The notes under the pieces were generated by a model. It was given only the letters and a program-made list of their open reading frames with translations, was not told the DNA's origin and made no database searches. From IMG/VR virus record IMGVR_UViG_3300042878_001497, positions 109,416-173,415 of that record: DNA of 64,000 bases, one strand, 5' to 3'. Each line of letters opens with the position of its first letter. Positions within the stretch are counted from its first letter, which is position 1. This document shows positions 2,899 to 51,630 of the stretch, in pieces. Source of the DNA: a virus. Made by a program: the position numbers and the translations under genes.

Positions 2899-3003
2899 GC
2901 AGGGAGGCCGAGGGGCGAGCAGGGGGCGTTTCCCTCTCTCGCACCGAAGGTGCCACGCGCATTCTCATCAAAAGCCCGCAGGGCTTGTAATCAAAACTTA
3001 ACA

Positions 3004-3258
3004 ATGGCGTACGGAAGTATTAAATGGGAACCTTGGGTAGTAGTGCTTAAGGATGAAAAGAAGAGGACAGTAGAGGTTGTAAGATTTGACAACTTCGAAG
3101 ATATGATGATATGGAAGAAGTCCGAAGAAGGGACGGCTGTCCATAACATGCAGTTCCTAACAGTTGTCTCAATGACCGAGCGGTACTATCTTCAGTTATA
3201 CTCCTACGAACAGGAGGTGTGGTGGAATGAAGTCGAACATCTAATCAGAAAGCTATGA
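3004..3258 (+). CDS. hypothetical protein
   Basis: Likely start at ATG 3004 (MAYGSIKW) after an A-rich leader; upstream is GC-rich structured DNA. Confidence 0.55.
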   Translation: MAYGSIKWEPWVVVLKDEKKRTVEVVRFDNFEDMMIWKKSEEGTAVHNMQFLTVVSMTERYYLQLYSYEQEVWWNEVEHLIRKL

Positions 3259-3389
3259 CCAAGAGAATACCTCTAGACCAGGACCCGGCCTTTCGGGACC
3301 TAAATTGGGACCTTCCTTCAATCCAGGAATGGGATAATACATTACAAGACGGACTAGAGGATGAGGAGTGGAGTGATGATGAAGAGTGA
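3255..3389 (+). CDS. small acidic protein (44 aa, not in ORF track)
   Basis: ATGA overlap; MTKRIPLDQDPAFRDLNWDLPSIQEWDNTLQDGLEDEEWSDDEE. Confidence 0.55.
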   Translation: MTKRIPLDQDPAFRDLNWDLPSIQEWDNTLQDGLEDEEWSDDEE

Positions 3390-3478
3390 AGAAAGAGAAG
3401 AGAATGGCTATGAAGATGGAGTAGATATCTTCTCAGCATACAAAAGAAAAAAGACAACCTTCAGTGAATCTTTAGAAG

Positions 3479-5398: not shown

Positions 5399-5474
5399 GA
5401 AAAAAGTTTTGGGAGGGGGTTGGTTTATCCAACCTTCCTTCGTATATTTAGGTACAAACAAAAAAATAAAGGTT

Positions 5475-5627
5475 ATGAATGAAAACATTAAAGAATTGGT
5501 GGTTGAATTTGCAGAAGCATTAGACGAATCAGTTGTAATAGCATTATTTGATGAGCTAAAAGCTGAGGATAAGCCTTTTGCAAAAGAGGCACTACTTCGG
5601 TATTTGTCAAAATATTTACCAATTTAG
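5475..5627 (+). CDS. small early protein
   Basis: Start revised to the ATG after AATAAAGGTT; own promoter. Confidence 0.75.
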   Translation: MNENIKELVVEFAEALDESVVIALFDELKAEDKPFAKEALLRYLSKYLPI

Positions 5628-5718
5628 GTAAGATAATTTCAAAAAAGTTTAGGAGGGGGTTGGTTTTACCGACCCTCTTTCTTATCTTTAGGTATTAATA
5701 ACAACAAACACAACAGTT

Positions 5719-5961
5719 ATGGAATTGAAATTGAAAGAAAGAGTTTTCGGATTTACTTGGAACTTCGAAACTGGTGAAGTAGGAGAAGTGTTTACTGAAG
5801 AGCTTACTTCAAAAGAGGTCCAGTTGATAGGTCGTGTCATGGGAGATGATGTATCATTGATTATATATAACTCAGATATCAGTTTAGTATTTGGTGATGA
5901 TATCGAAAACCAAGATGAATTAGAGGAGATGGGATTAGCTGAAGTAATGGAATTTCTTTAG
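5719..5961 (+). CDS. small acidic early protein
   Basis: Own promoter cassette; very Asp/Glu-rich. Confidence 0.75.
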   Translation: MELKLKERVFGFTWNFETGEVGEVFTEELTSKEVQLIGRVMGDDVSLIIYNSDISLVFGDDIENQDELEEMGLAEVMEFL

Positions 5962-6022
5962 GAGGGGGTTGGTTTATCCAACCCTTCTTCGTATCTTTAG
6001 TAAACAAATAAAAAAAACGGTT

Positions 6023-6763: not shown

Positions 6764-6889
6764 ATGAAAAAGAATGATTTGATTGTAGTAATGCAGATAG
6801 CTATTTCGCTTTTAGATAAAGGTGAAGCAAATAAAGCTAATGGAGTTTTGAAAATAGCTCTAACGGAGGAATTTAGTTCTGGAAAATAG
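6764..6889 (+). CDS. 41-aa early peptide (not in ORF track)
   Basis: MKKNDLIVVMQIAISLLDKGEANKANGVLKIALTEEFSSGK after the leader AATAAAGGTT. Confidence 0.7.
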   Translation: MKKNDLIVVMQIAISLLDKGEANKANGVLKIALTEEFSSGK

Positions 6890-6943
6890 TTGGTTGGTAT
6901 TAGTCTAGTTACTATCTTTAGATAAATAAAAACAACAACGGTT

Positions 6944-7420
6944 ATGAAAGTAAAAGAATTGAATGAAGGAATTTACAAGAAATTGGTTAATCTAGACTAC
7001 AGCCGCAAAGAAAATTATTTGTATAAAACAAATGAAACTGAGTGGTGTGAGTTGGATGGTGAAATAAAAGATACAATTTTATCTTTTCCTATTCTCCAAA
7101 TAGATTGGTATGCAGATCTAATGGATATTGAAGTCCTAGATGGTGACCAACAGTTTTACTTATTTGAAAGTGAAGGTAGAACGTTTCTAGTAGATACACA
7201 GGGTTATAATTACCCACGCTATATCATTGAGTTAAAAGGGTTCAATGGTGTAGATGACACATATGAACGAATGGATGGATTGGTTCGAATTGCTGATGTT
7301 GCGATTTTGAAATCTGTGGTTAAGAGTTTGGCTTTTGATTTGCAGGAAGAAGGATTTGATAGAGCAGATATCATCAACTTCATCGATGCTCAAATCTACG
7401 GAGCACTTTTAGAAAAATAG
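6944..7420 (+). CDS. hypothetical early protein
   Basis: Own promoter and leader. Confidence 0.8.
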   Translation: MKVKELNEGIYKKLVNLDYSRKENYLYKTNETEWCELDGEIKDTILSFPILQIDWYADLMDIEVLDGDQQFYLFESEGRTFLVDTQGYNYPRYIIELKGFNGVDDTYERMDGLVRIADVAILKSVVKSLAFDLQEEGFDRADIINFIDAQIYGALLEK

Positions 7421-7477
7421 TTGCCTCCTAAGAGTATAGTTCGTATCTTTAGGTATAATTAAAAACAAACAACGGTT

Positions 7478-8230
7478 ATGATGAATGAAATTCAAGATCC
7501 CAATCAGCTTACTCTCGGTATTGAAAGCCAAGTATTGACTGTCGATCAGATAGAGCGAGTGGAAGCATTTAAAGAGCGATTGGATAAGAGTAATAAGAAT
7601 CTGAAAGCTTCTTTGCTCCGTAAGCAAGCTCTACTGTTAGAAAATGGCTTTGTCGAAGGTAAGGATTTTAGCTTCTCTATGGAGGAGGTAAATGAAAACG
7701 TAGATGTTAATGCTAATGGCTGGAATGATGCTGAATTAATCGTTACTGTGGATATTCTGCACGTCAAGGGGCAGTGTGCATTACTCTACGATCGATATGA
7801 AGTTACTTCTGATACGATTGTTCAGTCGACGGCTGGCTTTAGTATCGAGCAAAATAAAGTAGAGTGTTATACTATCAATAATAATGGCCGGTGGGTTACC
7901 TTCCGTACGCTAAAAGAGAAGTTGGCTGATAAGAATTCTGCTGCTGAATGGGAGATGATATCTACTCGTAATAGGAAGTCAGTACTCAGCTATACTGCTG
8001 AGAAGTATCAGAAGCTTGCTCCTGGGGCTGAAGTGGTGGTGGGTCGTGATGGTACGTCTAGAGGCCGTGATTACTACTCCTTCGATACTGTGACTGTAAA
8101 GTTTGAGAATGGTAATCTGTTAGTTGTTAAGCCCGGATTTAAGAATGATGAGGAGTCAGTTTATCGCTTTATCGATGTAACGACTACTGGTAAGAGTGCT
8201 GAAGAATTGGCTCAGTACCTCGGTCAATGA
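7478..8230 (+). CDS. hypothetical early protein
   Basis: Own promoter and leader; 250 aa. Confidence 0.8.
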   Translation: MMNEIQDPNQLTLGIESQVLTVDQIERVEAFKERLDKSNKNLKASLLRKQALLLENGFVEGKDFSFSMEEVNENVDVNANGWNDAELIVTVDILHVKGQCALLYDRYEVTSDTIVQSTAGFSIEQNKVECYTINNNGRWVTFRTLKEKLADKNSAAEWEMISTRNRKSVLSYTAEKYQKLAPGAEVVVGRDGTSRGRDYYSFDTVTVKFENGNLLVVKPGFKNDEESVYRFIDVTTTGKSAEELAQYLGQ

Positions 8231-8394
8231 GGAGTAAGCTGATCAGAGTCTCTGAAGAGATTGCTAAGACGCTACGGAGGTGGGATCCTAGTTCGCTAGG
8301 GTCCTACTCCATCGAGAGGAAGAAAGGTCCTAGGTACTTCACTGCAGTACAGGATTCGGACGGATGGGATATTATAACCTATTACGTCGACTAA
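8227..8394 (+). CDS. 55-aa hypothetical protein (not in ORF track)
   Basis: ATGA overlap; MRSKLIRVSEEIAKTLRRWDPSSLGSYSIERKKGPRYFTAVQDSDGWDIITYYVD. Confidence 0.55.
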   Translation: MRSKLIRVSEEIAKTLRRWDPSSLGSYSIERKKGPRYFTAVQDSDGWDIITYYVD

Positions 8395-8541
8395 GATATT
8401 TAGCCTCCTGGTTGGGCGCATATACACCAGGGTTGTTGTTTGTCTGGGTTGGGATCCTTCGGGATCTCTTCCTGGTTACAATAGTTGCCTTTAGAGAGTT
8501 TAGTTCGTATATTTAGGTATAATTAAAAACAAATAAAGGTT

Positions 8542-8724
8542 ATGTCAAACATCAAAGAAGAAGCGCTAATGGAAGTCGCTTATGCTTACGCTCATGCAGT
8601 AGGCATCCTCTCAGGCACTATGAATGTCCTGATCGATCATGTAGCTTCTTACACTGAAGAAGAGAAGATCGAGATGATGAAGAAAGCTTTGAAAGAGGCT
8701 GATGAAGCAATCGCTAATGCCTAA
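8542..8724 (+). CDS. small early protein
   Basis: Own promoter and leader. Confidence 0.75.
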   Translation: MSNIKEEALMEVAYAYAHAVGILSGTMNVLIDHVASYTEEEKIEMMKKALKEADEAIANA

Positions 8725-8785
8725 ATAAGAGTTGGCCCTTCGGGGCCTTCTTCTTATCTTTAGTTAAATAAAAACAACAACGGTT

Positions 8786-9052
8786 ATGGTAAAAGAAATC
8801 ACCTCAATGATGTCAGCACTCAAAGCAAAGGGTGTGAAGGTATGCGGCACAGCTTCAGAGTTCTACAGTGCTAAGACTCACATCGACGGTATCTGGGTAG
8901 CAGCTGAGTACACCCCGGACCTATTCAACTACTGGTCTGAGGCTTGGGCTGATACGTTCGGTGTTAAGCCTTCACTCAACAAGCTGGTTGAGGAGTCGGG
9001 CTGGTACTTTGAGTGGCATGACGCCGGTACGATGATGGTGTGGAAGCAGTAA
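8786..9052 (+). CDS. hypothetical early protein
   Basis: Own promoter and leader. Confidence 0.8.
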   Translation: MVKEITSMMSALKAKGVKVCGTASEFYSAKTHIDGIWVAAEYTPDLFNYWSEAWADTFGVKPSLNKLVEESGWYFEWHDAGTMMVWKQ

Positions 9053-9122
9053 CATAGAGTTGTCACCTGAGAGTATCCTTCATATCTTTAGTAAACAGAA
9101 TAACAACTAACAACAGCAAGAC

Positions 9123-9350
9123 ATGAACAAGAAAAAGTATCCTAAAGCCCAGCTTGACGCAGTCCTAGAAGGTGTATTGGTAGAATCACTACAGCTCTGG
9201 CAGAATGCATTCATCCAGGAGTTAGACAAGATGAAGGCCGATGGTAAGATCCCGATGTTCCATCCTAACTGGACCGCTCAAATGCTGAGAGAGTTCGGAC
9301 ATCGGTTCAGGGTGCAGGAGCTAATCGATACCCCGGCAGTACAGGATTAA
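9123..9350 (+). CDS. hypothetical early protein
   Basis: Own promoter; followed by a terminator. Confidence 0.75.
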   Translation: MNKKKYPKAQLDAVLEGVLVESLQLWQNAFIQELDKMKADGKIPMFHPNWTAQMLREFGHRFRVQELIDTPAVQD

Positions 9351-9352
9351 GA

Positions 9353-9382
9353 GAGAGGGCCCTTAGGGGCTCTTTTTTTTTG
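9353..9382 (+). terminator. intrinsic terminator ending the early cassette array
   Basis: GAGGGCCC-TTAG-GGGCTCTT stem followed by a long T run. Confidence 0.85.
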
Positions 9383-9578
9383 ACTGATGTCGTCAGGAGG
9401 TCAAGGTGAGAGCGGGGTGACGGCAAGGTGCTATAAACCTGCTAGTATATTTCACTATACGGTTTTCTCGACGGTTAGCTAGAGGTAACCCTAGTAATGC
9501 ATCGCTGATCAAATTTTAAGGTATACTAATATATATTTATATATAGAAAGCAAGGGTACAAGCGCTTCAACGGGTTAA

Positions 9579-9857
9579 TTAATTAGATTTAGTTGAAGCT
9601 AGATCCTTCAACTCCTTTTTTGTTCTCTCTTCACATTTATCCACCCTACTGTCGATATGACGGTAGACTGCCTCCAGGTCCCGCCTTATGGCATTGTCCT
9701 GTTCGTTACTAAATTCGTATAACCTTTGTTCAGCTTTCTCAAAATCAGCTACTGCTTTGATAAGACTCTTAATTGTCACATAGTTCATAAACGTAACCGC
9801 AACTACTACCGAAGTAATAACAGCACCTACACCTAAAAGAAATGATATTGTTTCCAT
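9579..9857 (-). CDS. small single-pass membrane protein with cytoplasmic coiled coil
   Basis: N-terminal hydrophobic segment ISFLLGVGAVITSVVVAVTFM; own promoter at 9908-9939 on the minus strand; the only convincing minus-strand gene. Confidence 0.8.
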   Translation of the reverse strand: METISFLLGVGAVITSVVVAVTFMNYVTIKSLIKAVADFEKAEQRLYEFSNEQDNAIRRDLEAVYRHIDSRVDKCEERTKKELKDLASTKSN

Positions 9858-9907
9858 ATTATATATTTTATATATGTCAAAGCACTTGTAGCACCCTTAC
9901 TACGGTT

Positions 9908-9939
9908 TTAATATAAGAACTTTTGGTAGAAAAACCAAC
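9908..9939 (-). promoter_or_regulatory. early-type promoter for the 9857..9579 gene
   Basis: Minus strand reads GTTG-N20-TATATTAA. Confidence 0.7.
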
Positions 9940-10047
9940 TATGTCCGGGGAAATTTTCCGGAAAAATTTTTATATATGTAGTTGTCTATATAATTATATC
10001 TTTATATATTTAATAATATAGGAGGAATCCTATTTATATAAAAAACT

Positions 10048-10431
10048 ATGAAGCTTATCTCTGCTCTTCTTTCGGAATCTAAAAGCGGTATCTTTGACGG
10101 TAAAACTTACCTTGATGATGCTACTTCGGCTATGGAGTTTGAGAAAGGGTACGAGGCCTTAGCTAGATTTGTTCATCCTAGACTAGTTATCAAAAAAGGC
10201 CACGATCCCGATCTAAAAATGGATTTAACCATAGCTTATGAAGAGCCTTCGGATTTACACTTTAGGTATATCGAGACTACGGGAGAATTTTTCTACGATG
10301 AAAAAATCTTCAAAGCAATCCTTCAGACCCCGGCCGTAAGAGAGAAACTAGGTAAGCTTTGGAATATCTCCCCGGACCCGGTAGAGGTATTTCGCCGCTA
10401 CGGTGCTGTTACAACTAAACTATCAGCGTGA
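10048..10431 (+). CDS. putative head-packaged (internal) protein
   Basis: N-terminus MKLISALLSE; late motif TATTTATA at 10031. Confidence 0.55.
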   Translation: MKLISALLSESKSGIFDGKTYLDDATSAMEFEKGYEALARFVHPRLVIKKGHDPDLKMDLTIAYEEPSDLHFRYIETTGEFFYDEKIFKAILQTPAVREKLGKLWNISPDPVEVFRRYGAVTTKLSA

Positions 10432-10856
10432 AAGCTCTACCACCTGCCTTTCTATCGATCTTCGATTACGATGATCAGGATGACCTTAGTAAGGAGGGGT
10501 TTACTAAGGCGGTGATCGATTACACCCAGCATCCGTACATCATTTTCGGTACCGTGATCAAATGCGTTGAGAACTTCTTTATCATTAATGAGATGTACCG
10601 TAAAAAATACGGAGAGAGATATCAATCAATTGAGCAGACCGTGCGAAAGACTTACTTTGATAGAGTATTCACTTACCTAGAAAGATTCGATGAGAGTAGA
10701 TATGAGCATATAGTAGAGGCTAGAAAATTTACTCCTCAGGAAATTGCCTTTGCTATGGAGGAGTTAAGAGATCACTATGAGGGTATTGAAGAGTATGAAA
10801 GATGTGCACGAATCCAAAAGATTTATAATATTTTAGCAGTAGAAGTTGCTTCTTAA
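10428..10856 (+). CDS. hypothetical protein with C-terminal UVR-like motif
   Basis: YEGIEEYERCARIQK. Confidence 0.6.
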   Translation: MKALPPAFLSIFDYDDQDDLSKEGFTKAVIDYTQHPYIIFGTVIKCVENFFIINEMYRKKYGERYQSIEQTVRKTYFDRVFTYLERFDESRYEHIVEARKFTPQEIAFAMEELRDHYEGIEEYERCARIQKIYNILAVEVAS

Positions 10857-10899
10857 GCATTTACTTACTATCTTTAAGTATCAATAAAAAATAAAGGTT

Positions 10900-11103
10900 A
10901 TGCTTAGTACGATCATTTACTACATCATTGTAGGAGTTACTTTTAACTTCCTATGGGATTTTGTTGTCTCAAAGACTCGAAAAGAGGAAAACCGTTTCAC
11001 TATGTTAGAGCGTATTATCGTGACTATTATCTGGCCGATAACTATACTCTTCTTTATCTTTATTTTAGCTAGGAATCTATTTTTCGGTAACGATCAAGAG
11101 TAA
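10900..11103 (+). CDS. small two-TM membrane protein
   Basis: Two hydrophobic segments; own early promoter. Confidence 0.7.
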   Translation: MLSTIIYYIIVGVTFNFLWDFVVSKTRKEENRFTMLERIIVTIIWPITILFFIFILARNLFFGNDQE

Positions 11104-43440: not shown

Positions 43441-45318
43441 ATGGCTGATACTTCATTATTTAGTAGATTACAGAGACTTTTCTCTACCGACGTAGTTATT
43501 CGCAACGTTGGCGGTAATCAGCTCAAGATAGCAGACGTAAACCACATTCAGAGCACCGGTCGATACGAGACTAACTCGTTGGTTGACCGTTTCTCTCGTC
43601 TTTACATCTACAATAATAAGAACATTTTTAATCCGAACCTTAACTACCAGACGTTAAGGATTCAACTTTACTCGGATTACGAAGCAATGGACTCTGATCC
43701 AATCATCGCTTCAGCACTTGATATCCTAGCCGACGAAGCTACCCTGAGAAATGATATGGGGGATGTACTTACAGTTAAGACATCGGACGAGAACATTAAG
43801 AAGATCTTAAATAACTTATTTTACGACGTACTTAATATCGAGTTCAATCTTTGGTCTTGGACTCGTAATATGTGTAAGTATGGTGATTTCTTCCTTAAGC
43901 TAGAGATTGCAGAAACATTCGGTGTTTACAACGTACTGCCGTATACAGTCTACAGTATGGTACGCCATGAGAGTCAGGATCCTAACGCTCCTGCTAAGGT
44001 AACCTTTACCATCGACCCAGATGGAATCGCTTCATCTACCGATCCTAACTACATTCCTAGACATAAGGATAAAGTAATTCAGCTAGATAACTACGAAGTA
44101 GCACACTTCCGTCTTTTATCTGATACTAACTTCCTTCCTTACGGACGTTCTTACCTAGAGCCTGCTAGAAAAGTATACAAGCAGTTGATACTAATGGAAG
44201 ATGCGATGCTGATTCACCGCATCATGAGAGCTCCTGAGAAGAGAACTTTCTATGTCAACGTTGGTAACGTACCACCAAACGAGGTTGAGCAGTTCATGCA
44301 GAAGACTATCAACCAGATGAAGAAAACTCCTTATGTAGATCCTCAAACCGGTCAATACAACCTGCGTTTCAATATGCAGAACATGATCGAGGACTTCTAC
44401 ATCCCTGTTCGTGGAGGAGATACTTCAACTAGAATCGAAACAACTAAAGGACTTGAGTACGACGGCACCAACGACGTCGCTTACTTAAGAGATAAAATGT
44501 TTGCTGCCCTTAAAGTACCTAAAGCGTACTTTGGATACGAAGGAGATCTTCAAGGTAAAGCAACTCTAGCTGCAGAAGATATTCGTTTTGCAAGAACAAT
44601 CGAAAGAATCCAGCGCATCATCGAATCAGAGCTTACTAAGATTGCTCTTATTCACTTATACACCCAGGGCTACAAGGGTGAAAGCTTAACAAACTTTGAA
44701 CTTAAGCTTACAACTCCTTCTATCATTTACGAACAGGAGAAAGTTGCCCTTCTAAAAGAGAAGATCGACCTAGCAAGCCAGATGATGGACAGTAAGTTAT
44801 TCTCTTCTGACTACATCTACGAAAACATCTTTAACCTATCTGAAGATCAGTACAACGAAATGCGCGATCTTATCAGAGAAGATAGTAAGAGAACCTTCCG
44901 TGCAACTCAAATTGAGAACGAAGGCAATGACCCAGCTAAATCAGGTATATCTTACGGAACTCCTCACGACCTTGCTTCGATGTACGGTAGAAGAGGATCA
45001 GATTCACAAAAAGTACCTGTTGGTTACGATGAACTAGTAGGTGAGCCTAACCCGGAAGGTCGCCCTAGAACCAATATCTCTATCTACGGAACTCAAGAAG
45101 ATCCGTTAGGCAGAGACAGACTTGGACAACATGATATGAAAGGAGGCTACGAATCTCAGAATGACAAACTGAAGGAAGGCAGTCTCGCTACTAGAGCAGT
45201 GTTCTATCAAAATCAGGATCTATTCAAAGAGCGTAAAAAGCTAATCTTTGAACAGGACCATACTGCAGAATCCAGCACACTACTGGATGAAAGCAATATT
45301 AAGGATTTAGATAAGTAA
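43441..45318 (+). CDS. gp20: portal protein (T4 gp20-like)
   Basis: YGRSYLEPARK..KQL.LMEDAMLIHRIMRAPEKRTFYVNVGN, EDFYIPVRGG, ALKVPK, EDIRFAR. Confidence 0.96.
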   Translation: MADTSLFSRLQRLFSTDVVIRNVGGNQLKIADVNHIQSTGRYETNSLVDRFSRLYIYNNKNIFNPNLNYQTLRIQLYSDYEAMDSDPIIASALDILADEATLRNDMGDVLTVKTSDENIKKILNNLFYDVLNIEFNLWSWTRNMCKYGDFFLKLEIAETFGVYNVLPYTVYSMVRHESQDPNAPAKVTFTIDPDGIASSTDPNYIPRHKDKVIQLDNYEVAHFRLLSDTNFLPYGRSYLEPARKVYKQLILMEDAMLIHRIMRAPEKRTFYVNVGNVPPNEVEQFMQKTINQMKKTPYVDPQTGQYNLRFNMQNMIEDFYIPVRGGDTSTRIETTKGLEYDGTNDVAYLRDKMFAALKVPKAYFGYEGDLQGKATLAAEDIRFARTIERIQRIIESELTKIALIHLYTQGYKGESLTNFELKLTTPSIIYEQEKVALLKEKIDLASQMMDSKLFSSDYIYENIFNLSEDQYNEMRDLIREDSKRTFRATQIENEGNDPAKSGISYGTPHDLASMYGRRGSDSQKVPVGYDELVGEPNPEGRPRTNISIYGTQEDPLGRDRLGQHDMKGGYESQNDKLKEGSLATRAVFYQNQDLFKERKKLIFEQDHTAESSTLLDESNIKDLDK

Positions 45319-50052: not shown

Positions 50053-51630
50053 ATGGAATTAAATTCTCTTTTAAACGAATCAGCACAGGGCTTCAAGTCT
50101 CTGCAAGCTGATGCTGCTAGACTCGCTGACAAGTGGTCTGCAACTGGTCTTCTTGAGGGTCTTGGCAACGAGATCGACAAGAACAATATGTCTATGATCC
50201 TTGAGAACCAGGCAAAACAAATCATCAAGGAATCCAACGCTACCAATGCTAACGGCGGAGCCGAGCAGTGGGCTGGTGTTGCTCTACCGCTTGTAAGAAA
50301 GGTATTCGCTCAGATCGCTGCTAAAGATTTCGTATCTGTACAGCCTATGAACCTTCCTTCAGGTCTTGTATTCTATCTTGACTTCAAGTACGGTACTACT
50401 GCTAACGGAAGAACTGACGGTGACAATATGTACGGTAACGTATCTACTGCTAACAACAAGATGTCTGTAGACGAGGAAGTTTCTGGCGGCCTTTACGGTG
50501 CTGGTCAATTCGGCTACACTATCAACTCAGCTTCTTTAGCTATCACTCAATCTACTGGTGCTGCTACTTCAGCTTCTATCGGATACCGTGACGAACTAGC
50601 TGGAACTTTATTCAAGACTGTATCAGTTTCTGCTGCTAGCTTCACAGCCCCAGATCTTAAGGGTGTAAGAGCTTTCCGTCTTCGTTCTGGTTCAACTGAC
50701 GTAACTAACTACCCAGAATTCACTACTTACGACGGTACTAACATTATCTTCGTAGTTAAAGCTAGCGACCTTTCTGTAACTGGAGAAATCACTGGATCAG
50801 TAATGTACCACAAGCAGCCTACTGACACTACTAGAGGTGACTTCGAATTCACTGGTGGTGTTGACGACAGAAGCCCAGCTATCCCTGAGATCAACGTATC
50901 TCTTGCTTCTGAGGCTATCGTTGCTAAGACTAGAAAGCTTAAAGCTCAATGGTCTCCAGAATTCGCTCAAGACTTGAACGCTTACCACAGCATCGATGCT
51001 GAGGCCGAGCTTACCTCACTTCTATCAGAGTACATCTCTATGGAAATCGATCTTGAGCTTCTTGACATGCTTATCCAAGACGCAGTTACTACTGAGCGTT
51101 GGTCAGCTGAGAACAACAAAGTGTGGAATGCCACTACTGGCTTGTGGTCTACTGCTACTGCAGACTTCTACAACACTCAAGGTCAGTGGTTCCAAACTCT
51201 TGGTACTAAGGTCCAGAAGGTGTCTAACAAGATCCACCAGAAGACTCTACGTGGCGGTGCAAACTTCCTAGTAGTTTCTCCGACTGTTGCAACTATCCTC
51301 GAGTCAATCCCAGGATATGCTGCTGATACAAACGGAGACAAGATGGACTTCGCAATGGGCGTACAGAAGGTAGGTCAGCTTAACAGCCGCTTCCGCGTAT
51401 ACAAGAACCCATACATGACTGAGAACGTAATCCTTATGGGCTACAGAGGTTCACAGTTCCTAGAGACTGGTGCGGTTTACGCTCCTTACATCCCTCTAAT
51501 GATGACTCCATTAGTGTACGATCCTGCTAACTTCACTCCAACGAAGGGCATCATGACTCGTTACGCTAAGAAGATGATCCGTCCAGAATTCTACGGTAAG
51601 ATCTACGTTTCTGACGTAGCTACTATCTAA
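50053..51630 (+). CDS. gp23: major capsid protein (T4 gp23-like)
   Basis: LPLVRK, VSVQPMNLPSGLVFYL, AKTRKLKAQWSPEFAQDL, YAPYIPL, FTPTKGIMTRY. Confidence 0.97.
   Translation: MELNSLLNESAQGFKSLQADAARLADKWSATGLLEGLGNEIDKNNMSMILENQAKQIIKESNATNANGGAEQWAGVALPLVRKVFAQIAAKDFVSVQPMNLPSGLVFYLDFKYGTTANGRTDGDNMYGNVSTANNKMSVDEEVSGGLYGAGQFGYTINSASLAITQSTGAATSASIGYRDELAGTLFKTVSVSAASFTAPDLKGVRAFRLRSGSTDVTNYPEFTTYDGTNIIFVVKASDLSVTGEITGSVMYHKQPTDTTRGDFEFTGGVDDRSPAIPEINVSLASEAIVAKTRKLKAQWSPEFAQDLNAYHSIDAEAELTSLLSEYISMEIDLELLDMLIQDAVTTERWSAENNKVWNATTGLWSTATADFYNTQGQWFQTLGTKVQKVSNKIHQKTLRGGANFLVVSPTVATILESIPGYAADTNGDKMDFAMGVQKVGQLNSRFRVYKNPYMTENVILMGYRGSQFLETGAVYAPYIPLMMTPLVYDPANFTPTKGIMTRYAKKMIRPEFYGKIYVSDVATI

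Follow-up and report, generated by a model that had tools for sequence, protein, structure and literature searches.

The flanks of a small gene for a putative membrane protein were found to carry two complementary arms that would close its mRNA into a terminal stem. The duplex between the 5′ and 3′ flanks was present in 44 of the 46 distinct IMG/VR loci with both flanks, at −21 to −37 kcal/mol, and the way the arms have changed points to selection on the pairing of the sense RNA. All of this was observed in silico: the structure of the stem with its conservation, covariation and sense bias, its location at the message ends, and a start region that stays open. On balance, and with modest confidence, we favour a terminal clamp by which a portable single-gene mRNA has both its ends defined and protected.

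The stem in the window and in related loci

The gene lies in a 64,000-nt stretch of DNA (the window) that is part of a 102-kb uncultured virus record. The window encodes a T4-type portal at 43441-45318 and a major capsid protein at 50053-51630, and the nearest cultured relative is Flavobacterium phage vB_FspM_immuto (immuto), with which it shares 60% identity in a baseplate protein. Apart from the 92-aa ORF between the arms (Table 1), every long credible ORF lies on the plus strand. A previous reading of the DNA, made from the sequence only, had called this ORF the only minus-strand gene, which is plausible because the other long minus-strand ORFs sit within larger plus-strand ORFs. Metagenome homologues of the 92-aa protein formed more than 138 protein clusters, with 58–99% identity and under purifying selection, and the ORF is therefore real.

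Table 1. Positions of the arms, the gene and the neighbouring signals in the window.
Feature	Position	Strand	Remark
5′ arm of the terminal stem	9876..9902	−	outer helix of 8–9 bp, GCU bulge, inner helix of 14 bp
3′ arm of the terminal stem	9548..9571	−	
Host-type early promoter	9908..9939	−	GTTG (−33) at 9939-9936, 20-nt spacer, TATATTAA (−7/−10 box) at 9915-9908
A/U-rich unstructured leader, 18 nt, without Shine-Dalgarno	9858..9875	−	translation initiation region
ORF of 92 aa	9579..9857	−	N-terminal transmembrane helix continuing as a long helix
Stop codon and TAATTAACCC spacer	9572..9581	−	three frames all closed just before the 3′ arm
Late-promoter-type motif TATTTATA	9534..9541	+	points into the 3′ arm
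Conserved non-coding tract, ~150 nt	9386..9533		between early-array terminator and late promoter; alignment of five loci
Intrinsic terminator, GC hairpin and T9	9352..9381	+	closes the plus-strand early array; conserved in L001 and L047
Early genes with the unit (TA)GTTG-N19/20-TATMTT	6944, 7478, 8542, 8786, 9123, 10048, 10900	+	
TATTTATA sites (include)	9534, 10031, 25348, 30704, 35617, 43417, 45323, 51687, 54549, 58015, 60057	+	

On the minus strand, positions 9900-9876 pair with 9571-9550 in 8 + 14 base pairs, with a 3-nt GCU bulge and four G.U pairs, and in all of these details the sequence-only reading was correct. One additional A-U pair extends the stem to 23 bp. The inner helix of the 5′ arm ends with the conserved ..CTTTGAC, and 7 nt separate the stop codon (9581-9579) from the 3′ arm. 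In the RNAfold prediction for 9540-9905 (minus strand), which the earlier reading had proposed as a check, the duplex was present in both the MFE and the centroid structures. The fold had an energy of −96 kcal/mol (z = −2.7; equal stability in 0 of 100 shuffles), and the mean pairing probability of the 5′-arm bases with the 3′ end was 0.84. The duplex itself reached −34 kcal/mol, compared to the weak −7.7 and −3.7 kcal/mol of each flank folded alone. Random 62-mer pairs, taken at the same spacing in the window, were as stable in 27 of 3000 draws, and since the window alone gives only this ~1% tail event, the case for the duplex rests on the related loci.

Within the window, the inner motif TTCTTTGACA had a single occurrence at ≤1 mismatch, on this strand. 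Equally strong flank duplexes were seen around three plus-strand genes (5475-5627, 5719-5961 and 8227-8394), and all three were rejected as long-range stems. The pairing around the last one is loose and runs via coding sequence, and that around the first two comes from copies of one self-complementary promoter hairpin. Near-identical hairpins of this kind (GGGGGTTGGTTT..CCAACC) recur at 5400-5980 in the spacers of successive early promoters, which explains the two spurious duplexes. A DNA-level repeat search of the region did not rank the duplex, because G.T pairs and the bulge score as mismatches. Rfam had no match for the region at gathering thresholds (two chance-level matches at E up to 1), and ARAGORN placed no tRNA anywhere in the window.

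The related loci came from a pattern scan of IMG/VR, which returned 75 loci with 27–88% protein identity. The two loci that lacked the stem were L072, which encodes a truncated 68-aa relative, and L045, which has lost the 3′ arm. In the latter, a natural variant at 2900-3400 of the locus, the gene and part of the 5′ arm are kept and the 3′ arm is gone, and it offers a ready-made comparison for the function of the stem. Among cultured phages, nothing was found by blastn of the region or by tblastn with three family members; a profile search located a homologue in immuto (immuto26A_32, hypothetical protein). There, a 14-bp stem, CTACCGTTCTTTGA / TCAAAAGAACGGTAG, brackets the ORF directly after tRNA-Cys. 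The sequence-only reading had made its proposal depend on complementary UTRs in homologs, and complementarity was indeed found both in the IMG/VR loci and in immuto. The stem-bracketed gene occurs in lake and sea phages, and a cultured system is at hand in Flavobacterium sp. LMO8 with immuto.

The inner and outer parts of the stem have evolved differently. The inner part is conserved in sequence (TTCTTTGAC / GTYAAAGAA), with ..GGTTCTTTGACA at its end ahead of the leader and CGTYAAAGAACC.. past the stop codon. The outer 8–15 bp are wholly different among about 19 stem types or clades, with complementarity kept, as in GTAAGGGT/ACCCTTGC of the window, TTAGTACT/GGTACTAA of L006, ATATCGCAAGG/CCTTTGCGATAT of L046 and AAATACATCAGTGG/CCACTGATGTATTT of L074. 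Stem lengths range from 13 to 29 bp across lineages; most types have 20–29 bp, and the shortest stems (13–17 bp) are those of L041, L044, L036, L055 and immuto. Covariation in the UTRs of homologs, another check proposed earlier, was evident in an alignment of 32 sequences, where 18 of the 22 aligned pairs had changed on both sides. In the same alignment, 77% of the cells were paired, compared to 67% in shuffles (0 of 500 as high), and sliding the partners by 1–3 columns left at most 51% paired. These counts were taken from a MAFFT alignment and understate the pairing, because the register of the outer helix is not the same in all clades. The arms of the 19 stem types gave a mean of −28.4 kcal/mol with their cognate partners vs −14.7 (sd 5.4) with non-cognate ones, and the cognate arm was the best partner in 15 of the 19. 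The terminal helix around the whole ORF was thus kept through about 20 independent sequence replacements, which is strong natural evidence that the architecture of a whole message can be selected in phages.

The G.U pairs had been taken by the sequence-only reading as a sign of selection on RNA, and the related loci bear this out. In 37 of 44 loci, the duplex was more stable in its sense than in its antisense form, and every difference above 4 kcal/mol favoured the sense strand. The mean number of G.U pairs per stem was 1.8 for the sense and 0.57 for the antisense strand. Taken with the outer arms, which covary freely, this bias indicates selection on the sense RNA and not on a DNA repeat. A DNA-level feature, either terminal inverted repeats or recombination sites of a mobile cassette or a long-range terminator, is in our view highly unlikely. 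It would suit the occurrence of the gene in three unrelated contexts and in both orientations, as well as the sequence conservation of the inner repeat. Nevertheless, the mismatches are overwhelmingly sense-strand G.U pairs, which are A.C on the other strand, and a DNA site recognised by a protein would not let its outer arms covary freely. No transposase or recombinase travelled with the gene in the loci examined.

Promoter, genomic settings and predicted message ends

The promoter ahead of the 5′ arm (9939-9908) is the repeated early unit of this phage, (TA)GTTG-N19/20-TATMTT, common to seven plus-strand early genes (Table 1). The predicted start of the transcript, at about 9903 ± 3, coincides with the base of the 5′ arm. 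The earlier reading had set the 5′ arm directly after this promoter, with the entire ORF looped out; the match to the early unit and the predicted start at the stem base agree with the former, and the position of the duplex with the latter. The unit resembles the Bacteroidota promoter type, −33 TTTG / −7 TAnnTTTG, a likeness that supports a host among the Bacteroidota. Over 6860-10900 of the window, the promoter and leader recur as one unit, (TA)GTTG-N19/20-TATMTTTAG...ACGGTTATG.

The gene was found in three genomic settings and in both orientations, with the stem kept in each. In the first, represented by the window, L001, L042, L047 and L054, the gene is inverted among early genes. In the second, it is co-oriented between the tail-tube and baseplate-hub genes, with a terminator hairpin and a sigma-70-like promoter upstream and the late promoter of the next gene downstream. 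This arrangement was seen at L018 603-4113 and in about 25 similar loci of another phage clade, where the stem-bracketed gene is within the late structural operon and the late promoter of the next gene abuts the 3′ arm. In the third, the gene lies within tRNA arrays, on the tRNA strand (L036, L055, L065 and L074); the base of the stem is 0–1 nt past the upstream tRNA and 2–4 nt before the next one. Here the stem fills the inter-tRNA spacer, and tRNA processing alone would therefore release a message that ends in the stem. Outside the tRNA arrays, the −10/−7 box is located about 8–10 nt ahead of the stem.

Past the 3′ arm, no consistent U-tract of an intrinsic terminator was observed: the 10-nt tails held 3.7 T on average vs a background of 3.0, and several of them were without any T-run. 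A long-range terminator was rejected on this ground. For the same reason, the message may extend past the 3′ arm at promoter-driven loci.

On the inner side, the ATG lies 15–24 nt past the 5′ arm (median 19; 44 loci), and the 3′ arm follows the stop codon at 1–19 nt (median 6). Both spacings roughly match the edge of a ribosome footprint. The stem thus encloses the ORF tightly and leaves hardly any bare RNA beyond the helix. Moreover, stop codons close all three frames before the 3′ arm in 12 of the 19 stem types. Such a geometry could serve closed-loop translation, in which the stop codon is held within ~25 nt of the start codon and terminating ribosomes re-initiate. The tight spacings, just outside the ribosome footprint, the A-rich leader without a Shine-Dalgarno sequence and the closure of the three frames would all fit this idea, and a closed loop would be of help in the Bacteroidota, which translate mostly without Shine-Dalgarno pairing. 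We nevertheless regard it as quite unlikely. The idea is purely geometric, compact phage genomes yield short spacers regardless, and we know of no bacterial precedent for closed-loop re-initiation.

Possible functions of the stem

The sequence-only reading had likened the pairing to that of hok-type mRNAs, which are silenced until they are processed. In hok/Sok (tac-fbi) and in H. pylori aapA1/IsoA1, fold-back shuts the ribosome site until the 3′ end is trimmed. By analogy, the full-length message would be inert until 3′ trimming, which would gate a toxic membrane protein. The likeness is one of geometry: in hok and aapA1, too, a short monocistronic mRNA for a membrane protein pairs its outermost 5′ and 3′ sequences, with conservation across homologues (PMC5416894); in addition, the product is membrane-anchored, and a late antisense promoter is present in the lineage of the window. 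However, the 5′ arm ends at −15 to −24 from the ATG. Opening the region from −18 to +13 around the ATG was predicted to cost 3.7 kcal/mol in the panhandle, compared to 4.2 kcal/mol once the 3′ arm is removed, an in-silico equilibrium estimate over 22 diverse loci. The start region is thus predicted to be open with or without the 3′ arm, and the stem does not hide the start site. Contrary to what silencing until processing would imply, removal of the 3′ arm is predicted not to free it. The products also differ: the toxins of hok and aapA1 have under 50–60 aa, whereas full-length members of the phage family, at 89–132 aa and with a long soluble helix, are well above a 60-aa peptide. Those systems also depend on a cis antisense RNA, whereas an antisense promoter was found in only one of our three contexts, and the co-oriented and tRNA-array contexts had neither a conserved antisense promoter nor an overlapping leader ORF. 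Taken together, hok-like fold-back inhibition appears very unlikely.

The terminal clamp, our preferred explanation, would work as follows. The two arms would form a terminal panhandle in the mRNA of the small early membrane-protein gene. Transcription would begin at the host-type promoter, a few nucleotides ahead of the 5′ arm, or, in related phages, the message would be cut instead from a tRNA precursor, its arms abutting the tRNAs. The 3′ arm, ~6 nt past the stop codon, would then fold back onto the 5′ arm, so that a helix of 13–29 bp locks the two ends of the mature message, whose loop holds only the ~19-nt open leader and the ribosome-covered ORF. The clamp would leave the ribosome landing site exposed and would shield the message from nucleases attacking free 5′ and 3′ ends. 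It would also insulate the gene from a late structural operon, a tRNA array or early genes on the opposite strand, and promoter, stem and ORF together would make up a portable, context-independent expression module. The stabilising function, the transcript ends, the half-life of the message and its structure in vivo are inferred. In the lineage of the window, a late promoter beside the 3′ arm may add antisense shut-off late in infection.

[quoted passage not shown] The hbs pairing is internal to longer UTRs and was described in one species, whereas the phage stem is terminal, has 13–29 bp and covaries in about 20 phage lineages. Two observations do not sit well with a plain clamp. Most stems, at 20–26 bp, are about the size of an RNase III substrate, longer than a clamp strictly needs, and the inner 10–12 bp are conserved in sequence and not merely in pairing. 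A plain thermodynamic clamp leaves the latter unexplained. The conserved inner sequence hints at a possible sequence-specific partner.

The main rival to the clamp is an RNase III processing site, at which the host enzyme would cut both arms at once, excising the mRNA from tRNA precursors or early read-through transcripts and setting its lifetime; the conserved inner ~11 bp would possibly be left as a residual clamp. We consider this a possibility to be taken seriously, albeit an improbable one. Most stems have 20–29 bp with a central bulge or internal loop, which is about two helical turns; the inner half keeps its sequence while the outer half varies; the gene is embedded in tRNA arrays in some phages; and Bacteroidota encode RNase III, as a control match in B. 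thetaiotaomicron confirmed. On the other hand, the stems of 13–17 bp listed above are short for canonical RNase III, and a message within a tRNA array would be released anyway, by RNase P and the enzymes that process tRNA 3′ ends. A phage-encoded RNase III was searched for and not found. A parallel is the rRNA operon, where stems bracketing 16S and 23S rRNA are cut by RNase III. In both cases, the flanks pair and loop out a long RNA, and neighbouring tRNAs share the precursor. The rRNA stems, however, enclose a stable non-coding RNA and their cleavage is demonstrated, whereas the phage stem encloses an mRNA and its cleavage is hypothetical.

It is also conceivable, though rather doubtful, that the message belongs to a new phage class with the build of a stable RNA. 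Such an mRNA, punctuated from tRNA precursors by the tRNA-processing enzymes or started at the base of the stem, would be closed by a helix resembling an acceptor stem, with the conserved inner GGUUCUUUGAC / GUYAAAGAACC read by a specific factor. This factor could be a trimming enzyme of the RNase III type, one acting in a ribosome-recycling closed loop that would suit the Bacteroidota with their lack of Shine-Dalgarno sequences, or one that joins the ends into a circular mRNA. The circular mRNA is the least likely version, because no RNA ligase gene was found. Neither the 102-kb fragment nor the complete immuto genome gave an Rnl1 or Rnl2 match, although the Rnl1 model matched no control genome either, which makes the Rnl1 negative a weak one. 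On these searches, circularisation by a phage RNA ligase was rejected.

To our knowledge, only a few bacterial mRNAs (hok, aapA1, icaR and hbs) have 5′ and 3′ ends that pair with each other, and each was studied in one or a few species. The phage stem belongs to this known but rare class of bacterial-type 5′/3′-UTR pairings, and a search of the literature gave no description of a stem-bracketed phage element. In S. aureus icaR, the 5′ and 3′ UTRs of a single mRNA base-pair with each other (PMC3868564). The phage stem shares this 5′/3′-UTR pairing with icaR, but leaves the start region free. The 3′ UTR of icaR reportedly pairs with the Shine-Dalgarno region, blocks translation and invites RNase III. 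What the phage stem suggests is a simple, portable design that makes expression of a gene independent of its neighbours. It also provides a testable case of mRNA end protection or processing in the Bacteroidota, where RNA decay and translation without Shine-Dalgarno sequences are poorly understood.

The encoded protein and predicted late antisense transcription

The product had been described in the sequence-only reading as a single-pass membrane protein of 92 aa, which our analysis upheld. AlphaFold2, run with a 28-sequence alignment, predicted a single continuous helix for residues 2-91 (pLDDT 91). Full-length members of the family have 89–132 aa, with one transmembrane helix followed by a soluble helix of ~65–100 aa. 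They share an invariant N-terminal membrane segment, ME..F.LG, a variable middle and an invariant DSRVDKL. We also observed length variants with 11-residue insertions in the helical middle, which fits a heptad or hendecad register. Even at 23% identity, DSRVDKL is kept without change, and this suggests that it may form a specific binding or assembly contact.

Rz-type i-spanins have the same layout, an N-terminal membrane anchor and then a long coiled-coil-like helix, and weak matches to the PHROG ‘Rz-like spanin’ were obtained for 13 of the 28 members (best E about 1e-6). These matches may reflect composition only. Pfam gave no family above the cut-off, only generic transmembrane-plus-coiled-coil families being matched, and the ESM Atlas returned only unnamed viral clusters. 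With E2 ahead of the transmembrane helix and lysines behind it, the long helix is not clearly placed in the periplasm. Unlike i-spanins, the protein has no adjacent or embedded outer-membrane lipoprotein partner: in the window, the gene has neither a same-strand neighbour nor an embedded ORF, and in immuto the downstream 51-aa ORF has no signal peptide and no lipobox. The window gene is also under an early host-type promoter and not in a late lysis-cassette position. Given the missing o-spanin partner and the early promoter, we make no spanin call and leave the product as a probable membrane-anchored coiled-coil protein. In immuto, a gene for an endolysin-type glucosaminidase was located 1.4 kb downstream.

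The motif TATTTATA, usually CTATTTATA, has 16 plus-strand copies in the window and none on the minus strand, and for most copies a late structural gene follows at 15–60 nt. This motif is probably the late promoter of the phage group, and corresponds to the T4 late motif TATAAATA in reverse complement. The copy that points into the 3′ arm is invariant in all five inverted-context loci and is followed by ~500 nt without a plus-strand ORF. A late antisense transcript is predicted to run from about 9547-9550 through the whole gene, and would probably read on into gene 10048. A terminator-like hairpin on the plus strand, at 9944-9962, is not conserved in the related loci, and a discrete antisense RNA of ~420 nt is thus unsupported. 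Late antisense shut-off of the early membrane protein is plausible for the lineage of the window. The sequence-only reading had raised the idea of an antisense RNA, and the motif at 9534-9541 supplies a candidate promoter for it in this lineage; no antisense promoter was conserved in the co-oriented or tRNA-array contexts. Late antisense transcription cannot account for the stem in these two contexts.

The tract between the early-array terminator and this late promoter had no Rfam match and contained no tRNA. In the five inverted-context loci, it comprises the conserved blocks AAAAT.T.ATCAG, two AACCGT motifs and GTATAGTGAAATATACTAGCAGGTTTAT.GCACC, and a small RNA or a promoter may be encoded there, on one strand or the other. 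On the minus strand, 9471-9444 was flagged as a sigma-70-like site.
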